Shown here: positions 1 through 7,803 of the stretch, one piece after another
Numbering within the stretch: position 1 is the first letter of the stretch
Layout of the letters: each line of letters begins with the position of its first letter
From: a virus
Taxonomy: Duplodnaviria > Heunggongvirae > Uroviricota > Caudoviricetes
Virus record (IMG/VR): IMGVR_UViG_2667527898_000008
Coordinates: 1 to 7,803 of that record
Reading direction: 5' to 3' (one strand)
DNA length: 7,803 bases
Position numbers and translations under genes: made by a program
The notes under the pieces: generated by a model
Told to the model about the DNA's origin: nothing
Database searches by the model: none
Seen by the model: the letters and a program-made list of their open reading frames with translations, nothing else

Positions 1-159
1 AATCAGAACAATCACGTGGTGATTCAGAACGACGGCCCCAACGGGCGGGCAGAGCCGCAGCTGATGAAAGCGGTGTATGAGATGGCCCGCAAGGGGGCAC
101 AGGATGAACTCCGGCTGCAGTTGCGTGATGGCGGTATGTTATCAGGGAGCGGTGGATGA
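1..159 (+). CDS. H: Tail tape measure protein, C-terminal fragment (5' end lies outside the window)
   Basis: Frame 1 is open from position 1 to a TGA at 157-159 (52 codons, ...LRLQLRDGGMLSGSGG*). It sits immediately upstream of M, where lambda has H, and its stop overlaps the M start (ATGA at 156-159). Identity is by synteny only, not by recognised sequence. Confidence 0.7.
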   Translation, partial: NQNNHVVIQNDGPNGRAEPQLMKAVYEMARKGAQDELRLQLRDGGMLSGSGG

Positions 160-485
160 AAACCTTTCGCTGGAAAGTGAAGCCGGATATGGAGGTGAAC
201 TCGCAGCCATCGGTGCGTGAAGTGCGTTTTGGTGACGGGTACTCACAGCGTATGGCGGCAGGGCTGAATGCTGACCTGAAAACATACCGGGTGATGCTTT
301 CCGTGACCCGGGAGGAGGCCCGGCATCTGGAAGCGTTTCTGGCAGAGCACGGTGGCTGGAAGGCATTTTTGTGGAAGCCACCCTATGCATACCGGCAGAT
401 AAAGGTGACCTGTGCCGGGTGGTCTGCGCGGGTCGGGATGTTGCGCGTTGAGTTCAGCGCGGAGTTTAAGCAGGTGGTGAACTGA
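156..485 (+). CDS. M: Minor tail protein M (tail tip assembly)
   Basis: 109-aa ORF, the same length as lambda gpM and recognisably similar from memory (MKTFRWKVKPDMEV...). SD-like GGGAG lies upstream. The start overlaps the H stop and the stop overlaps the L start. Confidence 0.9.
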   Translation: MKTFRWKVKPDMEVNSQPSVREVRFGDGYSQRMAAGLNADLKTYRVMLSVTREEARHLEAFLAEHGGWKAFLWKPPYAYRQIKVTCAGWSARVGMLRVEFSAEFKQVVN

Positions 486-1183
486 TGCAGGATATTCACG
501 AAGAAAGTCTGAACGAGTCGGTTAAATCAGAGCAGTCACCGCGGGTGGTACTCTGGGAAATCGACCTGACGGTACAGGGCGGTGAGCGGTATTTTTTCTG
601 TAATGAGCTGAATGAAAAAGGGGAGCCGGTCACCTGGCAGGGGCGTAAGTATGAGGCATACCCGATTGACGGCAGCGGTTTTGAGATGAACGGCCGGGGC
701 AGCAGTGCCAGACCGTCGCTGACGGTGTCCAATCTGTTCGGTCTGGTCACCGGGATGGCGGAGGATTTGCAGAGCCTGGTGGGGGCCACGGTGGTCCGCC
801 GCCGGGTGTATGCCCGTTTTCTGGATGCGGTGAATTTCGTTGCGGGCAATCCGGAAGCGGACCCGGAGCAGGAGCTGAGTGACCGCTGGGTGGTGGAGCA
901 GATGTCGCAGCTGACAGCCATGACGGCCTCGTTTGTGCTGGCCACACCGACCGAGACGGACGGGGCGCTGTTTCCCGGTCGTATCATGCTGGCGAACACC
1001 TGTATGTGGACCTACCGCTCTGATGAGTGTGGTTACACGGGCGGGGCTGTGGCGGATGAGTTCGATAAACCCACCACGGATATCCGTAAGGACAGATGCA
1101 GCAAGTGCATGCGCGGGTGTGAACTGCGCAGGAATGTCGGCAATTTTGGCGGTTTCCTTTCCATTAATAAACTTTCGCAGTAA
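485..1183 (+). CDS. L: Minor tail protein L (tail tip assembly)
   Basis: 232-aa ORF, the same length as lambda gpL, with a Cys-rich C-terminus (C173, C182, C205, C208, C212) as expected for the Fe-S-binding gpL. The ATG overlaps the M stop in TGATG (483-487). Confidence 0.9.
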   Translation: MQDIHEESLNESVKSEQSPRVVLWEIDLTVQGGERYFFCNELNEKGEPVTWQGRKYEAYPIDGSGFEMNGRGSSARPSLTVSNLFGLVTGMAEDLQSLVGATVVRRRVYARFLDAVNFVAGNPEADPEQELSDRWVVEQMSQLTAMTASFVLATPTETDGALFPGRIMLANTCMWTYRSDECGYTGGAVADEFDKPTTDIRKDRCSKCMRGCELRRNVGNFGGFLSINKLSQ

Positions 1184-1188
1184 ATCCC

Positions 1189-1932
1189 ATGACACAGACT
1201 GAATCAGCGATTCTGGCGCATGCCCGGCGGTGTGCGCCTGCGGAGTCGTGCGGCTTCGTGATAAGCACGCCGGAGGGCAACCAGTACCAGCCGTGCGTGA
1301 ATATCTCTGCAGAGCCTGAGGCGTATTTTCGTATCGCACCGGAAGACTGGCTGCGGGCAGAGATGCAGGGGGAGATTGTGGCACTGGTCCACAGTCATCC
1401 CGGTGGACTGCCCTGGCTGAGCGAGGCCGACCGGCGGCTGCAGATAAAAAGCGCACTGCCCTGGTGGCTGGTCAGCCGGGGTGACATTCACAAATTCCGC
1501 TGCGTTCCGCACCTGACGGGACGGCGCTTTGCGCACGGGGTGACGGACTGTTACACGCTGTTCCGGGATGCATACCATCTGGCAGGCATTGATATGCCGG
1601 ATTTTCATCGCGGGGATGACTGGTGGTGCAACGGTCAGAACCTTTACCTGGACAATATGGAGGCAACGGGCTTTTACCGGGTGCCCCTGTCCTCTGCACT
1701 GCCGGGCGATATCCTGCTGTGCTGCTTCGGCGCATCGGTGGCTAATCATGCCGCCATTTACTGCGGCAACGGTGAGCTGCTTCACCATCTGCCTGAACAG
1801 CTGAGTAAACGGGAGAGGTATTCCGAAAAATGGCAACGACGAACGCATTCTGTCTGGCGTCACCGCCACTGGCACGCATCTGCCTTCACGGGGATTTACA
1901 ACGATTTGGCCGCCGCCTCAGCCTGTATGTGA
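1189..1932 (+). CDS. K: Tail tip assembly protein K (JAMM/MPN domain plus NlpC/P60-like domain)
   Basis: 247-aa ORF starting 5 nt after the L stop. A complete JAMM motif H-S-H-x7-S-x2-D is at residues 68-81 (HSHPGGLPWLSEAD, nt 1390-1431). An NlpC/P60-like candidate catalytic Cys is in TDCYTLF (C121, nt 1549-1551), with His residues downstream. The 3' 103 nt overlap gene I in another frame; the true 3' end or start may differ from this longest-ORF call. Confidence 0.87.
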   Translation: MTQTESAILAHARRCAPAESCGFVISTPEGNQYQPCVNISAEPEAYFRIAPEDWLRAEMQGEIVALVHSHPGGLPWLSEADRRLQIKSALPWWLVSRGDIHKFRCVPHLTGRRFAHGVTDCYTLFRDAYHLAGIDMPDFHRGDDWWCNGQNLYLDNMEATGFYRVPLSSALPGDILLCCFGASVANHAAIYCGNGELLHHLPEQLSKRERYSEKWQRRTHSVWRHRHWHASAFTGIYNDLAAASACM

Positions 1933-2510
1933 ACACGGCAGCGGAAGCCATCCGCGCACTGTCGATGCAGGTGCCGGGCTTTCGCCGTCAGATGAACGAA
2001 GGCTGGTACCAGATACGCATTGCCGGTGAGGATACGGCACCGGAGGCGGTGTATGCCCGCCTTCACGAACCACTGAGTGAGGGAACGGTTATCCATATTG
2101 TGCCGCGACTGGCCGGGGCCGGAAAGGGTGGACTGCAGATTGTGCTGGGGGCGGCAGCCATCGTGGGCTCTTTCCTCACTGCCGGTGCCTCGATGGCGTT
2201 ATGGGGTACAGCCCTGAGTGCCGGCGGTTTTTCTGCCACCACGATGCTGTTTTCACTGGGGGCCAGCATGATTCTGGGGGGTGTGGCCCAGATGCTGGCC
2301 CCGAAGGCAAAAACACCGGATTACCGCGCAACGGATAACGGCAGACAGAACACGTATTTTTCGTCACTGGACAACATGATTGCCCAGGGTAACCCGATGC
2401 CGGTGCCTTACGGGGAAATGCTGGTTGGCTCCCGCCGTATATCCCAGGACATCAGTACCCGTGATGAAGGCGGGTGCGGAAAGGTCGTGGTTATCGGGCG
2501 GCAGGGGTAA
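1830..2510 (+). CDS. I: Tail tip assembly protein I
   Basis: 226-aa ORF whose N-terminus (MATTNAFCLASPPLARICLHGDLQRF...) and Gly/Ala-rich hydrophobic middle match my recollection of lambda gpI. SD-like GGGAGAGG is at 1811-1818. It lies between K and J. Confidence 0.87.
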   Translation: MATTNAFCLASPPLARICLHGDLQRFGRRLSLYVNTAAEAIRALSMQVPGFRRQMNEGWYQIRIAGEDTAPEAVYARLHEPLSEGTVIHIVPRLAGAGKGGLQIVLGAAAIVGSFLTAGASMALWGTALSAGGFSATTMLFSLGASMILGGVAQMLAPKAKTPDYRATDNGRQNTYFSSLDNMIAQGNPMPVPYGEMLVGSRRISQDISTRDEGGCGKVVVIGRQG

Positions 2511-2517
2511 AAAGAAT

Positions 2518-2552
2518 AAAAAAAATCCCGCAGTGATCGCGGAGCTGCGGGG
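2518..2552 (-). terminator. Intrinsic (rho-independent) terminator for minus-strand transcription
   Basis: On the minus strand a GC-rich hairpin (2527-2533 CCCGCAG pairing with 2545-2551 CTGCGGG, 7 bp, possible extra G-U pair, 9-11 nt loop) is followed by eight U (plus-strand A8 at 2518-2525) and a further U-rich tail. On the plus strand there is no U tract after the hairpin, so it is unidirectional. Confidence 0.6.
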
Positions 2553-2612
2553 ACAGACAAAGATTAGAGTTAAGGAGTTGTTTTTGTTACTCGGGCAAAA
2601 AAACACTAACGC
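2518..2612 (-). ncRNA. Candidate small non-coding RNA (~95 nt) between promoter and terminator, antisense to the I-J intergenic part of the late transcript
   Basis: Defined only by the minus-strand promoter (2619-2646) and terminator (2518-2552). Predicted RNA: GCGUUAGUGUUUUUUUGCCCGAGUAACAAAAACAACUCCUUAACUCUAAUCUUUGUCUGUCCCCGCAGCUCCGCGAUCACUGCGGGAUUUUUUUU. It has no AUG and no purine-rich SD. A 5' stem is possible (UGUUUUU with AAAAACA), followed by a CU-rich single-stranded stretch containing CUCCUUA. No homology to a known RNA family was established. Confidence 0.4.
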
Positions 2613-2618
2613 AGCGAA

Positions 2619-2646
2619 ATTATACGCGCCACAGTCAGTTTGTGAA
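2619..2646 (-). promoter_or_regulatory. Sigma70-type promoter on the minus strand (-35 TTCACA, 16-bp spacer, -10 TATAAT)
   Basis: Minus-strand reading: TTCACA (plus 2641-2646), 16 bp, TATAAT (plus 2619-2624). The -10 is a perfect consensus and the -35 matches 5 of 6. Predicted start site is near plus coordinate 2611-2613. It lies in an AT-rich island flanked by GC-rich tail genes. Confidence 0.5.
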
Positions 2647-2718
2647 AATGTGAAGATATTCAGAATTTTTATGCCATTACCGGTTTTTACCAACAGGATT
2701 ATCGGTGGACATGAAAGA

Positions 2719-2754
2719 AAACCCCGGTATCTGCTGATACCGGGGTTTCTCTTT
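2719..2754. terminator. Perfect palindrome hairpin flanked by an A tract and a T tract; candidate bidirectional intrinsic terminator
   Basis: CCCCGGTATC (2722-2731), loop TGCT, GATACCGGGG (2736-2745) forms a 10-bp perfect stem, extendable to 13 bp with the flanking AAA and TTT. It is followed by TTTCTCTTT on the plus strand and preceded by AAAGAAAA, which gives a U-rich tail on the minus strand as well. Confidence 0.5.
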
Positions 2755-2851
2755 AGCATGGCAGAAATGTGTTTCATGCTTTTCGGGCGAAGGATATCCG
2801 ACTTCTGTACGGAATGGCAAGTGGCGGTTAATTTATTCAGGGGAAGGCTGT

Positions 2852-5800
2852 ATGGGAAAAGGTGGCGGTAAGGCACACACGCCTCGTGAGGCGAAGGATA
2901 ATCTCAAATCCACGCAGATGATGAGCGTGATTGATGCGGTTGGTGAGGGACCGATAGAAGGCCCGGTGAAGGGACTGCAGAGTATCCTGGTGAACAAAAC
3001 CCCGCTGACGGACACGGACGGTAATCCCGTGATACACGGTGTGACGGCGGTCTGGCGCGCCGGGGAGCAGGAGCAGACACCACCGGAAGGCTTTGAGTCC
3101 TCCGGAGCTGAAACTGTACTGGGCGTGGAAGTGACGAAGGCAAAACCGGTGACGCGCACCATTACGTCCGCGAACATTGACCGCCTGCGGGTTACCTTCG
3201 GGGTGCAGTCACTGGTGCAGACCACGTCAAAGGGTGACCGAAACCCGACATCCGTCCGCCTGCTGATTCAGTTACAGCGTAACGGTAACTGGGTGACAGA
3301 AAAGGATGTCACCATTAACGGCAAGACCACCTCGCAGTTTCTGGCGTCGGTGATTCTGGATAATCTGCCTCCCCGTCCTTTTAACATCCGGATGGTCCGG
3401 GAGACGGCGGACAGCACCACGGACCAGTTGCAGAACAGAACACTCTGGTCATCGTACACCGAAATCATCGATGTGAAACAGTGCTACCCGAACACGGCGA
3501 TTGTGGGGCTGCAGGTGGATGCGGAGCAGTTCGGTGGTCAGCAGATGACGGTGAACTACCATATCCGCGGTCGCATCATCCAGGTGCCGTCAAACTATGA
3601 CCCGGAAAAACGCACCTACAGCGGTATCTGGGACGGCAGTCTGAAACCGGCATACAGCAACAACCCGGCCTGGTGCCTGTGGGACATGCTGACTCACCCG
3701 CGCTACGGGATGGGAAAACGCCTGGGGGCGGCGGATGTGGACAAGTGGGCGCTGTATGCCATCGGGCAGTACTGCGACCAGACGGTCCCGGATGGTTTCG
3801 GGGGCACAGAGCCGCGGATGACCTTTAATGCGTACCTGGCACAACAGCGTAAGGCGTGGGACGTTCTCAGTGATTTCTGCTCGGCGATGCGCTGTATGCC
3901 GGTATGGAACGGCCAGACGCTGACGTTCGTTCAGGACCGCCCGTCGGATGTGGTGTGGCCGTACACCAACAGCGATGTGGTGGTGGATGATAACGGCGTG
4001 GGGTTCCGCTACAGCTTCAGTGCCCTGAAGGACCGGCACACGGCGGTGGAGGTGAATTACACCGACCCGCAGAACGGCTGGCAGACCTCCACGGAACTGG
4101 TGGAAGACCCGGAAGCCATACTGCGCTACGGACGCAATCTGCTGAAGATGGATGCGTTTGGCTGTACCAGCCGCGGTCAGGCTCACCGTGCAGGTCTGTG
4201 GGTGATAAAGACCGAACTGCTGGAAACGCAGACGGTGGACTTCACGCTCGGGTCACAGGGGCTGCGTCACACACCGGGTGACATTATTGAAATCTGTGAT
4301 AACGACTATGCCGGGACTATGACCGGCGGACGTATCCTGTCCATTGATGCTGCCACCCGCACCCTGACGCTGGACCGTGAGGTTACCCTGCCGGAGACAG
4401 GTACATCGGCGGTGAACCTGATTAACGGCAGCGGTAAGCCGGTGAGTGTGGACATCACCGCACACCCCGCGCCGGACCGGATACAGGTCAGTACCCTGCC
4501 TGATGGTGTGGAGACATACGGTGTGTGGGGACTCTCCCTGCCGTCACTGCGCCGTCGCCTGTTCCGCTGTGTCTCCATCCGGGAAAACACGGACGGCACC
4601 TTTGCCATCACGGCGGTGCAGCACGTACCGGAAAAAGAAGCCATTGTGGATAACGGAGCCCGCTTTGAGCCGCAGTCAGGCACCCTGAACAGCGTTATCC
4701 CACCGGCAGTACAGCACCTCACGGTGGAGGTGAGCGCAGCTGACAGCCAGTATCTGGCGCTGGCGAAATGGGACACGCCGAGGGTGGTGAAGGGCGTGCG
4801 CTTCAGTCTGCGCCTGACCAGTGGAAGCGATGAGAACAGCCGCCTGCTGACCACCGCCATCACTGCCGATACGGAGCACCGTTTCAGTGGCCTGCCTCTC
4901 GGGGAATACACCCTGACGGTCAGGGCGATAAACAGCTACGGCCAGCAGGGCGAACCCGCCACCACCACGTTCCGGATTAACGCACCGGCAGCGCCTGCCG
5001 GTGTTGAACTGACGCCGGGGTATTTTCAGATAACGGCAGTCCCGAAACTGACCATTTATGACCCGACGGTGCAGTTTGAGTTCTGGTTTTCGGAGGCAAA
5101 AATTGCAGACGCCGCACAGGTGGAAACCTCTGCCCGTTATCTGGGGACCGGCAGTCAGTGGAGTGTCTCCGGTCCGCACATTAAGCCCGGAAAGGATTTC
5201 TGGTTTTATGTGCGCAGCGTCAACCTGGTGGGTAAATCTGCTTTTGTGGAAGCCAGTGGACGGGCGAGCAATGATGCTGCGGGCTATCTGGAGTTTTTCC
5301 GGGAAAAGATAGGAAAAACACATCTGGCAGAGGCGCTGTGGGCAGAGATTGACAACAGCAAGCTGAAGGACGAGATGGCGGAAATGCAGACCACCATCAC
5401 AGAAACCCGCAATGAAATCACGCAGACGGTCAGTAAAACGCTGGAGGACCAGAGCGCCACCATACAGCAGATACAGCGCGTGCAGAAGGACACAAATGAT
5501 GACCTTGCTGCACTTTACATGCTGAAGGTACAGAAAACAAAAAATGGCATACCCTATGTTGCCGGTATTGGAGCGGGGATTGAGGATACTGATGGCCAGC
5601 CCCTGAGCAACATACTGCTGCTGGCTGACCGTATTGCGATGATTAACCCGGAGGACGGCAACACCACGCCGTTATTTGTGGCGCAGGGGAATCAGTTGTT
5701 CATGAACGATGTGTTCCTGAAGCGGCTGTTTGCGGTGAGTATCACCTCGTCCGGCAATCCCCCTACGTTCTCCCTGACGCCGGAAGGCAGGCTGACGGCC

Positions 5801-6382
5801 CGTAATGCGGATATCAGCGGACATATCAGTGCGAACTCGGGCACGCTGAATAATGTCGTGATAGCGGAGAACTGTACCATCAAAGGTACTCTGAGAGCGG
5901 AAAATATCATTGGCGATGTGGTGAAAACGCACAATGTCAGTCTTCCTGATCTCAGGGCTGCAGGGGAGCACAGACACGCGACAGAACGAACGGTTACTGT
6001 CATTGATGATCAGTCGTTTGACCGGAATATTGTTATCCCGCCGGTTTTTTATTCCGGTATTATCTACAAAGGAAGTGATGGTGACGGTGCGACCTCAATC
6101 TGTACGCTGACGGTGAGTGTGAATGATCGGGTGGTGTTCAGCAAAACCTCATCCATCGGTACCAGGCGTACGTCAGGGGGATACCCCGTTCAGGAAGACA
6201 CCATATATCCCGGGTCATCCACTCCGTTCAGCTATTTCATGAGGATGGCGTCAGGGGGAGGTGATGTCAGGATCAAGTTCCGGATTGAGGTCATCTATTA
6301 TGGAACTGCACCGGGTTTTATGACCACAGGGATACAGATCACAACGATGAAGGCGTCAGCTTCAGGATTTGTGGAAAGTTAA
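2852..6382 (+). CDS. J: Tail tip host-specificity protein J (central tail fibre, receptor binding)
   Basis: 1176-aa ORF. The N-terminus ([22 protein letters not shown]...) and long internal stretches (for example [36 protein letters not shown] and [33 protein letters not shown]) match my recollection of lambda gpJ. SD GGAAGG is 4 nt upstream of the ATG. Size and position after I fit. Confidence 0.95.
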
Positions 6383-6703
6383 TCCCGGACGATCGTGATT
6401 GCCGGAAGGAGACAAAAACCGCACAGTATGCGCGGGTGCCTTTGGCTGATGGCCGGAGGGAACACCTGAAAGCCTGATGTGAAAAGGCCCCGAGTCAACT
6501 TCAATGTTAACCCGAGGCCCTGATCCGTCTATCTTAAGCAAGTGGCAGGTTAGCGCCTCTCCGTAATAAGGAGCAAGTGCTGTGTCGCAAAAACCACCGT
6601 GATTTGTATCACTGTAGTGCTCATTATCTGGATCACCCACCGTTCACTGTGTGAATTCCGGTTCCGGATAGCACCTTTTTAATCCTGTAAACCACGATTT
6701 TTA

Positions 6704-6738
6704 CCGCAGACCGGGAAACCGGCACTGCGGTTTTTTTT
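6704..6738 (+). terminator. Intrinsic terminator on the plus strand, immediately upstream of stf
   Basis: Two-tier hairpin: outer stem CCGCAG (6704-6709) with CTGCGG (6725-6730), inner stem CCGG with CCGG closing a GAAA tetraloop (6715-6718), followed by T8 (6731-6738). The minus-strand side is A-rich after the hairpin, so it is unidirectional. Confidence 0.65.
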
Positions 6739-6751
6739 ATGGGGAAAATCT

Positions 6752-7803
6752 ATGACAGTCAGAATATCGGGCGTGCTGAAGGACGGCACCGGGAAGCCGG
6801 TGCCGGGATGCACCATTGAACTGAAAGCCCTGCGCACCACGGAGACAGTGATTGTCACCACGGTGGCGCAGGGGCAGCCGGGGGAAACCGGCAGTTACAG
6901 TTTTGATGTGGAGCCGGGGTGGTACCGGGTGACGCTGAACACGGAAGGGTACGCCCCGTCGTATGTGGGTGACATTCTGGTGAAGGCGGATTCTGAGCCG
7001 GGAACGCTGAATAAATTTCTGATGGAACAGGATGAGGCGCAGTATTACCCGAAAGCGCTTGCAGAGCTGGAAGCGGTGGCAGCGGAAATCCTGAAGCGTG
7101 CTGAAGCGTCGGCGGCGAGTGCAGAGGAAGCGAAGAAACGGGCAGAGAATGCCCGGGGACCGGCGGGCGAGAAGGGGGACACAGGTCCACAGGGTGCCAC
7201 AGGGGCACAGGGACCAGCCGGGGCAACGGGGGCGGTCGGACCAAAAGGTGAGCCGGGGCCAAAGGGAGAACGGGGAGAAACAGGTCCACAGGGACCGAAG
7301 GGCGATAAAGGTGACCCGGGCGGACCGCCGGGGCCGAAAGGTGACACCGGCCCACGTGGAGAGGCCGGACCACCCGGACCACAGGGTCCGGCAGGGCAAA
7401 CCGGCCCGAAAGGGGATAAAGGTGAACCCGGCGCAACAGGTCCGGCAGGTCCCGCAGGCCCTCGGGGAGAAACCGGCCCCGCAGGTCCTGCGGGTCCCGC
7501 AGGCAGTGTCGCCAGTGTTCCGGATGCCAGCACATCACAGAAAGGTGTTGTACAGCTGAGCAGCGATACCAACAGCGATGATGAAACAAAAGCGGCAACC
7601 CCAAAGGCTGTGAAAGCGGTAATGGCAGAAGTGCAGGCAGCAAAAACGAAGGCAGAAGAGGCAGCAACCCGGGCAGCAGTCCCCGGACCGAAGGGGGACA
7701 GGGGGGAACCTGGCGCACCTGGTGTAGTGGGGCCCGCAGGCCCTCAGGGACCGGCTGGTGCAGCCGGAGCCAAAGGTGCCCCGGGGCCAAAAGGGGACAA
7801 AGG
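6752..7803 (+). CDS. stf: Side tail fibre protein with collagen-like Gly-X-Y repeats (5' part; 3' end lies outside the window)
   Basis: The frame is open from ATG 6752 to the window end (350 codons, checked by hand). It is absent from the ORF track only because it has no stop inside the window. The N-terminus ([26 protein letters not shown]...) resembles the lambda Stf N-terminus as I recall it. SD-like GGGGAAAA is upstream. Long Gly-X-Y tracts follow an Ala/Glu-rich helical segment. Confidence 0.85.
7157..7504 (+). repeat. Collagen-like Gly-X-Y coding repeat, tract 1 (about 38 triplets, residues 136-251 of Stf)
   Basis: Translation shows uninterrupted G-X-Y periodicity ([22 protein letters not shown]...) with a single one-residue register interruption at G190/G191 (nt 7319-7324). 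The GC-rich, Pro-coding DNA produces the spurious antisense ORFs 6855-7790 and 7045-7572. Confidence 0.85.
7685..7803 (+). repeat. Collagen-like Gly-X-Y coding repeat, tract 2 (continues beyond the window)
   Basis: [39 protein letters not shown]. It is separated from tract 1 by a 60-residue non-collagen linker ([60 protein letters not shown]). The 13-bp direct repeat CCCGCAGGCCCTC occurs at 7451-7463 and 7733-7745. Confidence 0.8.

Follow-up and report, generated by a model that had tools for sequence, protein, structure and literature searches.

A divergent receptor-binding cassette at the tip of a lambda-type J protein from an Escherichia coli lambdoid prophage

The 7,803-base stretch of prophage DNA analysed here (the window) carries a gene J whose product departs from that of lambda at its C-terminus. 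An earlier note, made from the letters alone, had read this end of the protein as a swapped receptor-binding module that may specify a receptor other than LamB. Three questions follow: whether the C-terminus is still a receptor-binding domain (RBD) of the lambda kind, whether it was exchanged as a unit, and which receptor it would bind.

Gene J and its neighbourhood

The tail-tip region of a lambdoid prophage fills the window, as judged from the open reading frame list and its translation. Only the 3′ end of the tape-measure gene is present at the window start, followed by M (156–485), L (485–1183), K (1189–1932), I (1830–2510), a spacer of 341 nt (2511–2851), J (2852–6382), a second spacer of 369 nt, and the 5′ part of a side tail fibre gene that starts at about 6752 and runs past the window end. 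J is an intact frame of 1176 codons on the plus strand, as are all of its features described below, and the M, L, K and I frames are likewise intact. With M, L, K and I upstream and side tail fibre genes downstream, the context of J is that of lambda, and the homologous region of E. coli NCTC9112 is annotated in matching order, with a tail fibre gene after J. The exact J protein occurs in a single record, an NCBI E. coli draft contig of 7803 bp that is the whole window; the closest complete genomes are those of E. coli NCTC9112 and LZSFT34 (100% identity over 5800–6500). The window ends presumably lie in tail genes that recur in several lambdoid prophages within one genome. The K homologue, a C40 family peptidase in RefSeq, is 247 residues long from its first ATG; the lambda record lists 199 residues, a gap that probably reflects start-codon annotation rather than biology.

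J shares 63% identity with lambda J from end to end (BLASTP) and matches lambda gpJ (PDB 8iyk) with E = 0 in a sequence search of the PDB. Six gpJ Pfam families are found in it, all above their cut-offs and in the lambda order. The hub and FNIII/Ig region (3107–5299; Pfam E values of 1e-38 to 3e-41) comprises FNIII-A_GpJ (residues 86–207), the Phage-tail_3 hub domain (331–498), Ig_J (609–712) and Ig_J_second (714–816), and shares 85–100% identity with that of PhiR5_1. The central straight fibre, a β-prism assigned to Phage_Tail_Tip (PF09327; residues 871–998, nucleotides 5462–5845; E = 3.4e-22), is about 70% identical to its lambda counterpart and 92–100% identical to that of phage PhiR5_1; the sixth family is the C-terminal RBD. 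By sequence comparison, the product of J is thus assigned as a lambda-type tail-tip or central tail fibre protein (TipJ/gpJ).

At 1176 residues, J is 44 residues longer than lambda J (1132 residues; J02459, AAA96553), just as the earlier note had it. Two insertions, of 28 residues (837–864) and 19 residues (R1105–S1123), make up this excess, small indels elsewhere balancing out. The note had also described the first 1,000 or so residues as lambda-like, and in 40-residue bins identity to lambda J is indeed mostly 58–95% up to residue 1000, with dips at residues 521–560 (42%) and 801–920 (25–47%, around the first insertion). Identity then falls to 55% at residues 1001–1040, 38% at 1041–1080 and 19–25% beyond. 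The TVTVIDD...FDR block that had been placed near residue 1045 starts at residue 1047 (nucleotide 5990). Over the final 115 residues (from residue 1062, nucleotide 6035), 21 of 95 aligned positions are identical to lambda (22%) and about 20 further residues are unalignable, so the mismatch with the lambda C-terminus that the note had reported holds on alignment, and the LamB-binding domain of lambda is far off. That the divergence is not an alignment artefact is indicated by database comparisons, in which none of 50,697 phage genomes exceeded 33% identity and HMMER returned only an identical partial protein and one relative at 57%.

The first insertion (residues 837–864, nucleotides 5360–5443) appears as a gap in the alignment with lambda. 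In lambda, the second FNIII domain is followed by an α-helical shaft of three helices, which flips and partly turns into β-strand on receptor binding (PMC11101478); as 28 residues amount to four heptads, the insertion lengthens this shaft. The earlier note had recorded an extra charged, helical-looking segment here and counted it as a sign of the module swap. The segment exists and its region is 31% charged, but it accounts for only part of the 44 extra residues and it lies outside the swapped module. It is 100% identical in PhiR5_1 J, from a phage with a different tip, and falls within the part of the window (1–5875) in which many Stx-converting phages give matches of about 92%; we therefore regard the helical extension, on this sequence evidence, as a common backbone variant. 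A part for it in the host-range swap is ruled out by its identity in PhiR5_1 despite the other tip.

Both flanks of J differ from those in lambda. The I–J spacer is AT-rich (GC 0.43) and, at 341 nt, unusually long (lambda has about 60 nt); part of it (2673–2852) is absent or replaced in PhiR5_1, NCTC9112 and FHI_NMBU_10. On its minus strand it carries a strong promoter-like site, TTCACA-16-TATAAT (2646–2619), followed by a terminator-like hairpin (2543–2527), and a hairpin with a 14-bp stem lies at 2718–2749; no Rfam family convincingly fits the spacer, which could be a small moron or sRNA. Directly 3′ of J, at 6434–6682, is a degenerate hok/sok type I toxin–antitoxin locus, at the site taken by lom in lambda, 434 and PhiR5_1; no lom follows J in the window (6383–7803). 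The Rfam sok model RF01794 matches 6434–6593 (plus strand) over its full length with E = 9e-6, at 32.5 bits and hence below the gathering threshold of 59, at which Rfam gives no match in the window. A hok-like frame (about 6582–6682) has a GTG start, a frameshifting 10-nt deletion and a 15-nt deletion relative to FHI_NMBU_10, where an intact 46-residue Hok/Gef gene occupies the same site. The side tail fibre counterpart in NCTC9112 is a 517-residue 'prophage tail fiber N-terminal domain-containing protein', with a DUF4376 protein after it; the corresponding genes of FHI_NMBU_10 are pseudogenes.

The receptor-binding domain and its distal loops

The divergent C-terminus (residues 1026–1176, nucleotides 5927–6379) matches PF12421, 'Tip attachment protein J, C-terminal receptor binding domain', with 39.7 bits when the whole of J is searched and 45.1 bits for the C-terminal 173 residues (gathering cut-off 26.2 bits), the match covering residues 1039–1101, that is, positions 15–77 of the 135 in the profile and so its first half. 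An AlphaFold2 monomer model of residues 1004–1176, built from a 10-sequence alignment, is an eight-strand β-sandwich of low to moderate confidence (pLDDT 58, pTM 0.59; below pLDDT 50 in the inserted loop). A Foldseek search of the PDB with this model places four gpJ structures first (E = 2e-9 to 2e-7, TMq 0.54–0.57): lambda gpJ closed (8xck) and with LamB (8xcj), and A8 gpJ closed (9wca) and with OmpC (9wcb). Later matches, weaker by some four to five orders of magnitude, are generic β-sandwiches. The profile match above cut-off, the predicted β-sandwich and the gpJ structures at the head of the Foldseek matches together identify the C-terminus as a gpJ-type RBD, a divergent Ig_GpJ_C domain of predicted lambda fold with rebuilt loops. 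On this point the earlier note was right, and the structural comparison with lambda gpJ that it had proposed points the same way.

Kinship with the lambda domain extends to place and motifs. Like that of lambda, this RBD ends a J protein built of hub, two FNIII domains, α-helical shaft and β-prism; the framework residues that all aligned J types have in common (DDxxFDR, a Cys, an N-G turn, M-x-G-x-G and, near the end, K-x-x-x-x-G) are all present. These motifs, PF12421 and the predicted fold rule out a C-terminus unrelated to that of lambda. Over the domain, however, identity is only 27% to lambda and 26% to 434, compared with 93% to the allele of FHI_NMBU_10 and 58% to J of a Salmonella SSU5-like plasmid.

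Much of the difference is concentrated in four predicted distal loops. Loop 1 (residues 1030–1040, nucleotides 5939–5971) lies between model strands E20–26 and E38–47 and aligns with the region of lambda residue 1012, having the length of the lambda loop and an unrelated sequence. Loop 2 (1066–1079, nucleotides 6047–6088), in the region of lambda 1048, is one residue longer, the addition falling near lambda 1043/44. Loop 3 (1104–1125, nucleotides 6161–6226) holds the 19-residue insertion R1105–S1123 (nucleotides 6164–6220), which falls exactly between lambda V1077 and Q1078; it is missing in lambda, 434, PhiR5_1, 1720a-02 and all other J types in our alignment, whereas the Salmonella relative has a loop 3 extension that is five residues shorter. 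Loop 4 (1150–1160, nucleotides 6299–6331) has a two-residue deletion opposite lambda D1107–I1108 in both BLASTP and MAFFT alignments. As read from the strand order of the model rather than from its coordinates, the four loops would lie at the end of the domain away from the shaft, and the conserved motifs in the alternate loops beside it.

The four loops thus align with lambda positions of about 1012, 1048, 1077 and 1107. Among 1207 natural J homologues, indel and sequence variation peaks at lambda 1012, 1048–49, 1077–78 and 1107, and these peaks were hypothesized to be surface loops (Maddamsetti et al. 2018, PMC6646904); use of OmpF by lambda requires change at both 1012 and 1107 (PMC6646904). 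In the lambda complex, four bottom loops of gpJ, L1–L4, insert into LamB (Ge and Wang, PMC11101478), and we infer that the four peaks of variation are these same loops. The loops share 13% identity with lambda and the framework 32% (Fisher p = 0.03); for the Salmonella relative the two figures are 47% and 65% (p = 0.055). Between the window and the FHI_NMBU_10 allele, 8 of 11 differences fall in predicted distal loops (binomial p = 0.02), three of them in loop 1 and two in loop 2. Within the domain, the loops alone have been replaced and the framework has been kept.

Junction, history and relatives of the cassette

The 5′ junction of the cassette lies at 5875–5926 (about residues 1008–1025), where BLASTN homology ends: at 5875 for PhiR5_1, at 5926 for phage 1720a-02 and at 5857–5886 for Stx2a phages. 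Homology to 1720a-02 returns at 6394, 12 nt past the J stop codon, so that the cassette spans nucleotides from about 5875/5926 to 6393 and residues from about 1026 to 1176. The same border is seen in the protein: PhiR5_1 J is 88–100% identical to J of the window in each 40-residue bin to residue 1000, and the bins beyond fall to 45%, 42%, 32% and 16%. J reads, in these alignments, as a common backbone of the PhiR5_1 and Stx-phage type joined to the cassette at a conserved junction. A literature search found no relevant paper on the PhiR/mEp phages that share this backbone.

Synonymous divergence sets the module apart from its backbone. NCTC9112 carries an identical module on a J hub diverged at dS 0.14, and relative to FHI_NMBU_10 dS is 0.12 in the module and 0.28–0.50 in the backbone. 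GC3 shifts as well, from 0.715 in the hub to 0.53 in the module. The mosaic breakpoints, the dS contrast and the shift in GC3 all argue that the tip is an exchangeable cassette of about 150 residues with an evolutionary history of its own, which bears out the swap proposed in the earlier note; a history of the J 'specificity region' separate from that of the rest of J has been described in general terms (PMC6646904). Comparison of the E. coli alleles of the window and FHI_NMBU_10 gives a dN/dS of 0.28 for the module, against 0.11 outside it. The module is accordingly under purifying selection, and hence functional, although less constrained than the rest of J.

The cassette is rare. Among 5426 complete E. 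coli genomes it is present in three (two identical copies and one at 94.9%), and in none of 50,697 phage genomes, the best of which reaches 33% over the last 173 residues, conserved junction included. A HMMER search of 1.8 billion representative proteins gave the identical partial protein and the 57% relative mentioned above, and when 5.8 billion proteins were searched by word index with the C-terminal 140 and 193 residues, almost all that came back were partial E. coli proteins; full-length J proteins sit inside one 23,296-member cluster in the protein search. Over 100 draft contigs of E. coli encode partial proteins with the same tip, and the tip is also present on two IMG/VR E. coli contigs and one metagenome contig. 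Two scans of GTDB species-representative genomes gave no relative, and one metagenome scan gave only an identical copy.

The only relative of the domain found, at 57–58%, is the tip of a 1543-residue J of SSU5-like Salmonella enterica phage-plasmids. This tip is present on five plasmid records of about 101–108 kb (for example NZ_CP014707.1 and NZ_KP763470.1) and in IMG/VR record IMGVR_UViG_2880329822_000001 (locus L006), which is the Salmonella Anatum plasmid NZ_CP014707.1 (101,118 bp). SSU5 itself is without the module, its DNA homology ending about 680 nt before the J stop. The Salmonella J resembles that of the window over residues 1026–1176 (58%), in its loop 3 extension and in a C-terminal SGF motif, and differs in its length, in a much longer coiled-coil shaft and in residing on a phage-plasmid of about 100 kb. 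In L006, J (1714–6345) has an Ala/Glu/Lys-rich repetitive coiled-coil shaft of about 450 residues, followed by the conserved junction and the related tip; the tip family is thus found on fibres of very different length.

Candidate receptors

Similarity gives little guidance to the receptor. The domain is equally distant (26–28%) from the tips of lambda (LamB), 434 (OmpC) and two phages of unassigned specificity, and sequence comparison places it in no phage with a mapped receptor. It belongs by close similarity neither to the LamB-specific lambda-type allele, from which it is set apart by indels at every hot spot but the one at 1012, nor to the OmpC-specific alleles of the 434 and A8 types. 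Of the OmpC binders, 434 and A8 entered the comparison; the second engineered binder, 1A2, could conceivably be this same allele. Like the tip described here, the 434 and A8 tips are natural alleles from E. coli prophages and follow the common conserved junction, and the A8 gpJ structures match the fold predicted here (Foldseek E = 3e-8 and 2e-7, TMq 0.56–0.57); unlike it, both are without the loop 3 insertion, and the sequence match is 26% over the domain for 434 and confined to the first 97 or so residues for A8 (E = 9e-11). Clues from elsewhere were equally sparse. A literature search gave no receptor data for SSU5-like phage-plasmids, and neither cor nor lom lies beside J in the window; the svsR sRNA was considered and set aside, as it concerns the cI region and not the neighbourhood of J (PMC12803456). 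The receptor is probably different from that of lambda, or differently shaped. The 'non-LamB' receptor of the earlier note is thus plausible, and sequence divergence alone would be compatible with LamB too.

In both solved gpJ complexes of this fold, the partner is a trimeric porin that matches the threefold symmetry of the fibre (PMC11101478; PDB 9wcb). By analogy with these complexes, the receptor most likely belongs to the trimeric porins, an OmpC-type porin being the single best guess and LamB less likely. In our judgement, which is not a measurement, OmpC itself falls somewhat short of an even chance; another porin, OmpF included, is improbable, and LamB about equally so; and something else altogether is a lesser possibility than OmpC, although a better one than either of these. 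Gifsy-1 J, reported to bind OmpC, OmpX and BtuB (PMC12312913), counsels caution against assuming a porin.

We consider with good confidence that the locus is best explained by a gpJ RBD on an exchangeable cassette, in which the β-sandwich is kept and the four predicted distal loops are replaced, forming a fibre tip that would bind an outer-membrane protein. By analogy with lambda gpJ–LamB and A8 gpJ–OmpC, the tip of the fibre would present the domain in three copies, whose distal loops would reach into that protein. Binding would spread the three RBDs and twist the β-prism, the α-helical shaft would flip, and the tail tip would open for DNA ejection; such a cascade from RBD to shaft follows loop insertion into LamB in lambda (PMC11101478).

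The domain could instead still bind LamB; the allele would then be fitted to LamB surface-loop variants of certain E. coli lineages, and the related Salmonella tip to the LamB of Salmonella. Fold family is shared with the lambda domain, LamB serves several unrelated phage RBDs, among them GpJ tips of Drexlerviridae that lack homology to the lambda tip (bioRxiv 10.64898/2026.04.02.716166), and a pair from E. coli and Salmonella at 58% identity would fit any receptor whose orthologues have divergent surface loops. We nevertheless think this unlikely: identity to the lambda domain is 27%, falling to 13% in the loops predicted to make contact, and three of the four loop hot spots carry indels, among them 1107, where changes shift the receptor use of lambda (PMC6646904); the equal distance from the OmpC binders 434 and A8 leaves similarity neutral. 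Somewhat less improbable, but still a minority view, is a receptor class new to lambda-type J, either another outer-membrane protein (OmpA, Tsx, FhuA, BtuB, NupG, OmpX and others) or a surface glycan; the binding site would be the long loop 3. That the 19-residue insertion occurs in no other J type aligned, that the domain is in no sequenced phage, and that Gifsy-1 J has partners besides OmpC would fit such a receptor, as would a weak resemblance to lectin and carbohydrate-binding β-sandwiches (E of about 1e-3, TM 0.3–0.4). These lectin matches are generic, however, and far weaker than those to gpJ, and the trimeric porins of both solved complexes speak against a new class.

The degenerate hok/sok locus next door, the pseudogenized side tail fibre genes beside J in FHI_NMBU_10 and the nature of the window as a short isolated contig might suggest a cryptic prophage whose J C-terminus is decaying and has lost its binding. 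This is very improbable: the J, M, L, K and I frames are intact, dN/dS between alleles is 0.28, identical copies are present in unrelated strains with partial copies on more than 100 draft contigs, and the 58% relative keeps the entire framework in another type of phage. Returning to a functional RBD on an exchangeable cassette, we offer one extension of it as a speculation: the tip and its Salmonella cousin may form a distinct gpJ subfamily, in which a loop 3 extension of 14–19 residues binds a receptor other than LamB, OmpC and OmpF, and whose module has moved between chromosomal lambdoid prophages and SSU5-like phage-plasmids of about 100 kb.

The tip is a further member of a known hypervariable family. 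It shares with the natural variants of the J specificity region both indels at the same hot spots and a separate history (PMC6646904), and for phage biology in general it is variation of the expected kind and no surprise. Its interest lies in the role of the J tip, which sets the cells that a lambda-like phage, or a delivery particle derived from lambda, enters. Grafts of natural gpJ C-termini onto lambda at residue 964, in the conserved junction, have switched its receptor from LamB to OmpC for gene editing in the gut (PMC11338833), and a rare tip with a much enlarged contact loop is a candidate for the lambda retargeting toolbox. It is likewise a natural test case for the effect of loop indels on receptor choice (PMC6646904), and the presence of the module on J of a Salmonella phage-plasmid is a concrete case of receptor-binding modules crossing phage lineages.
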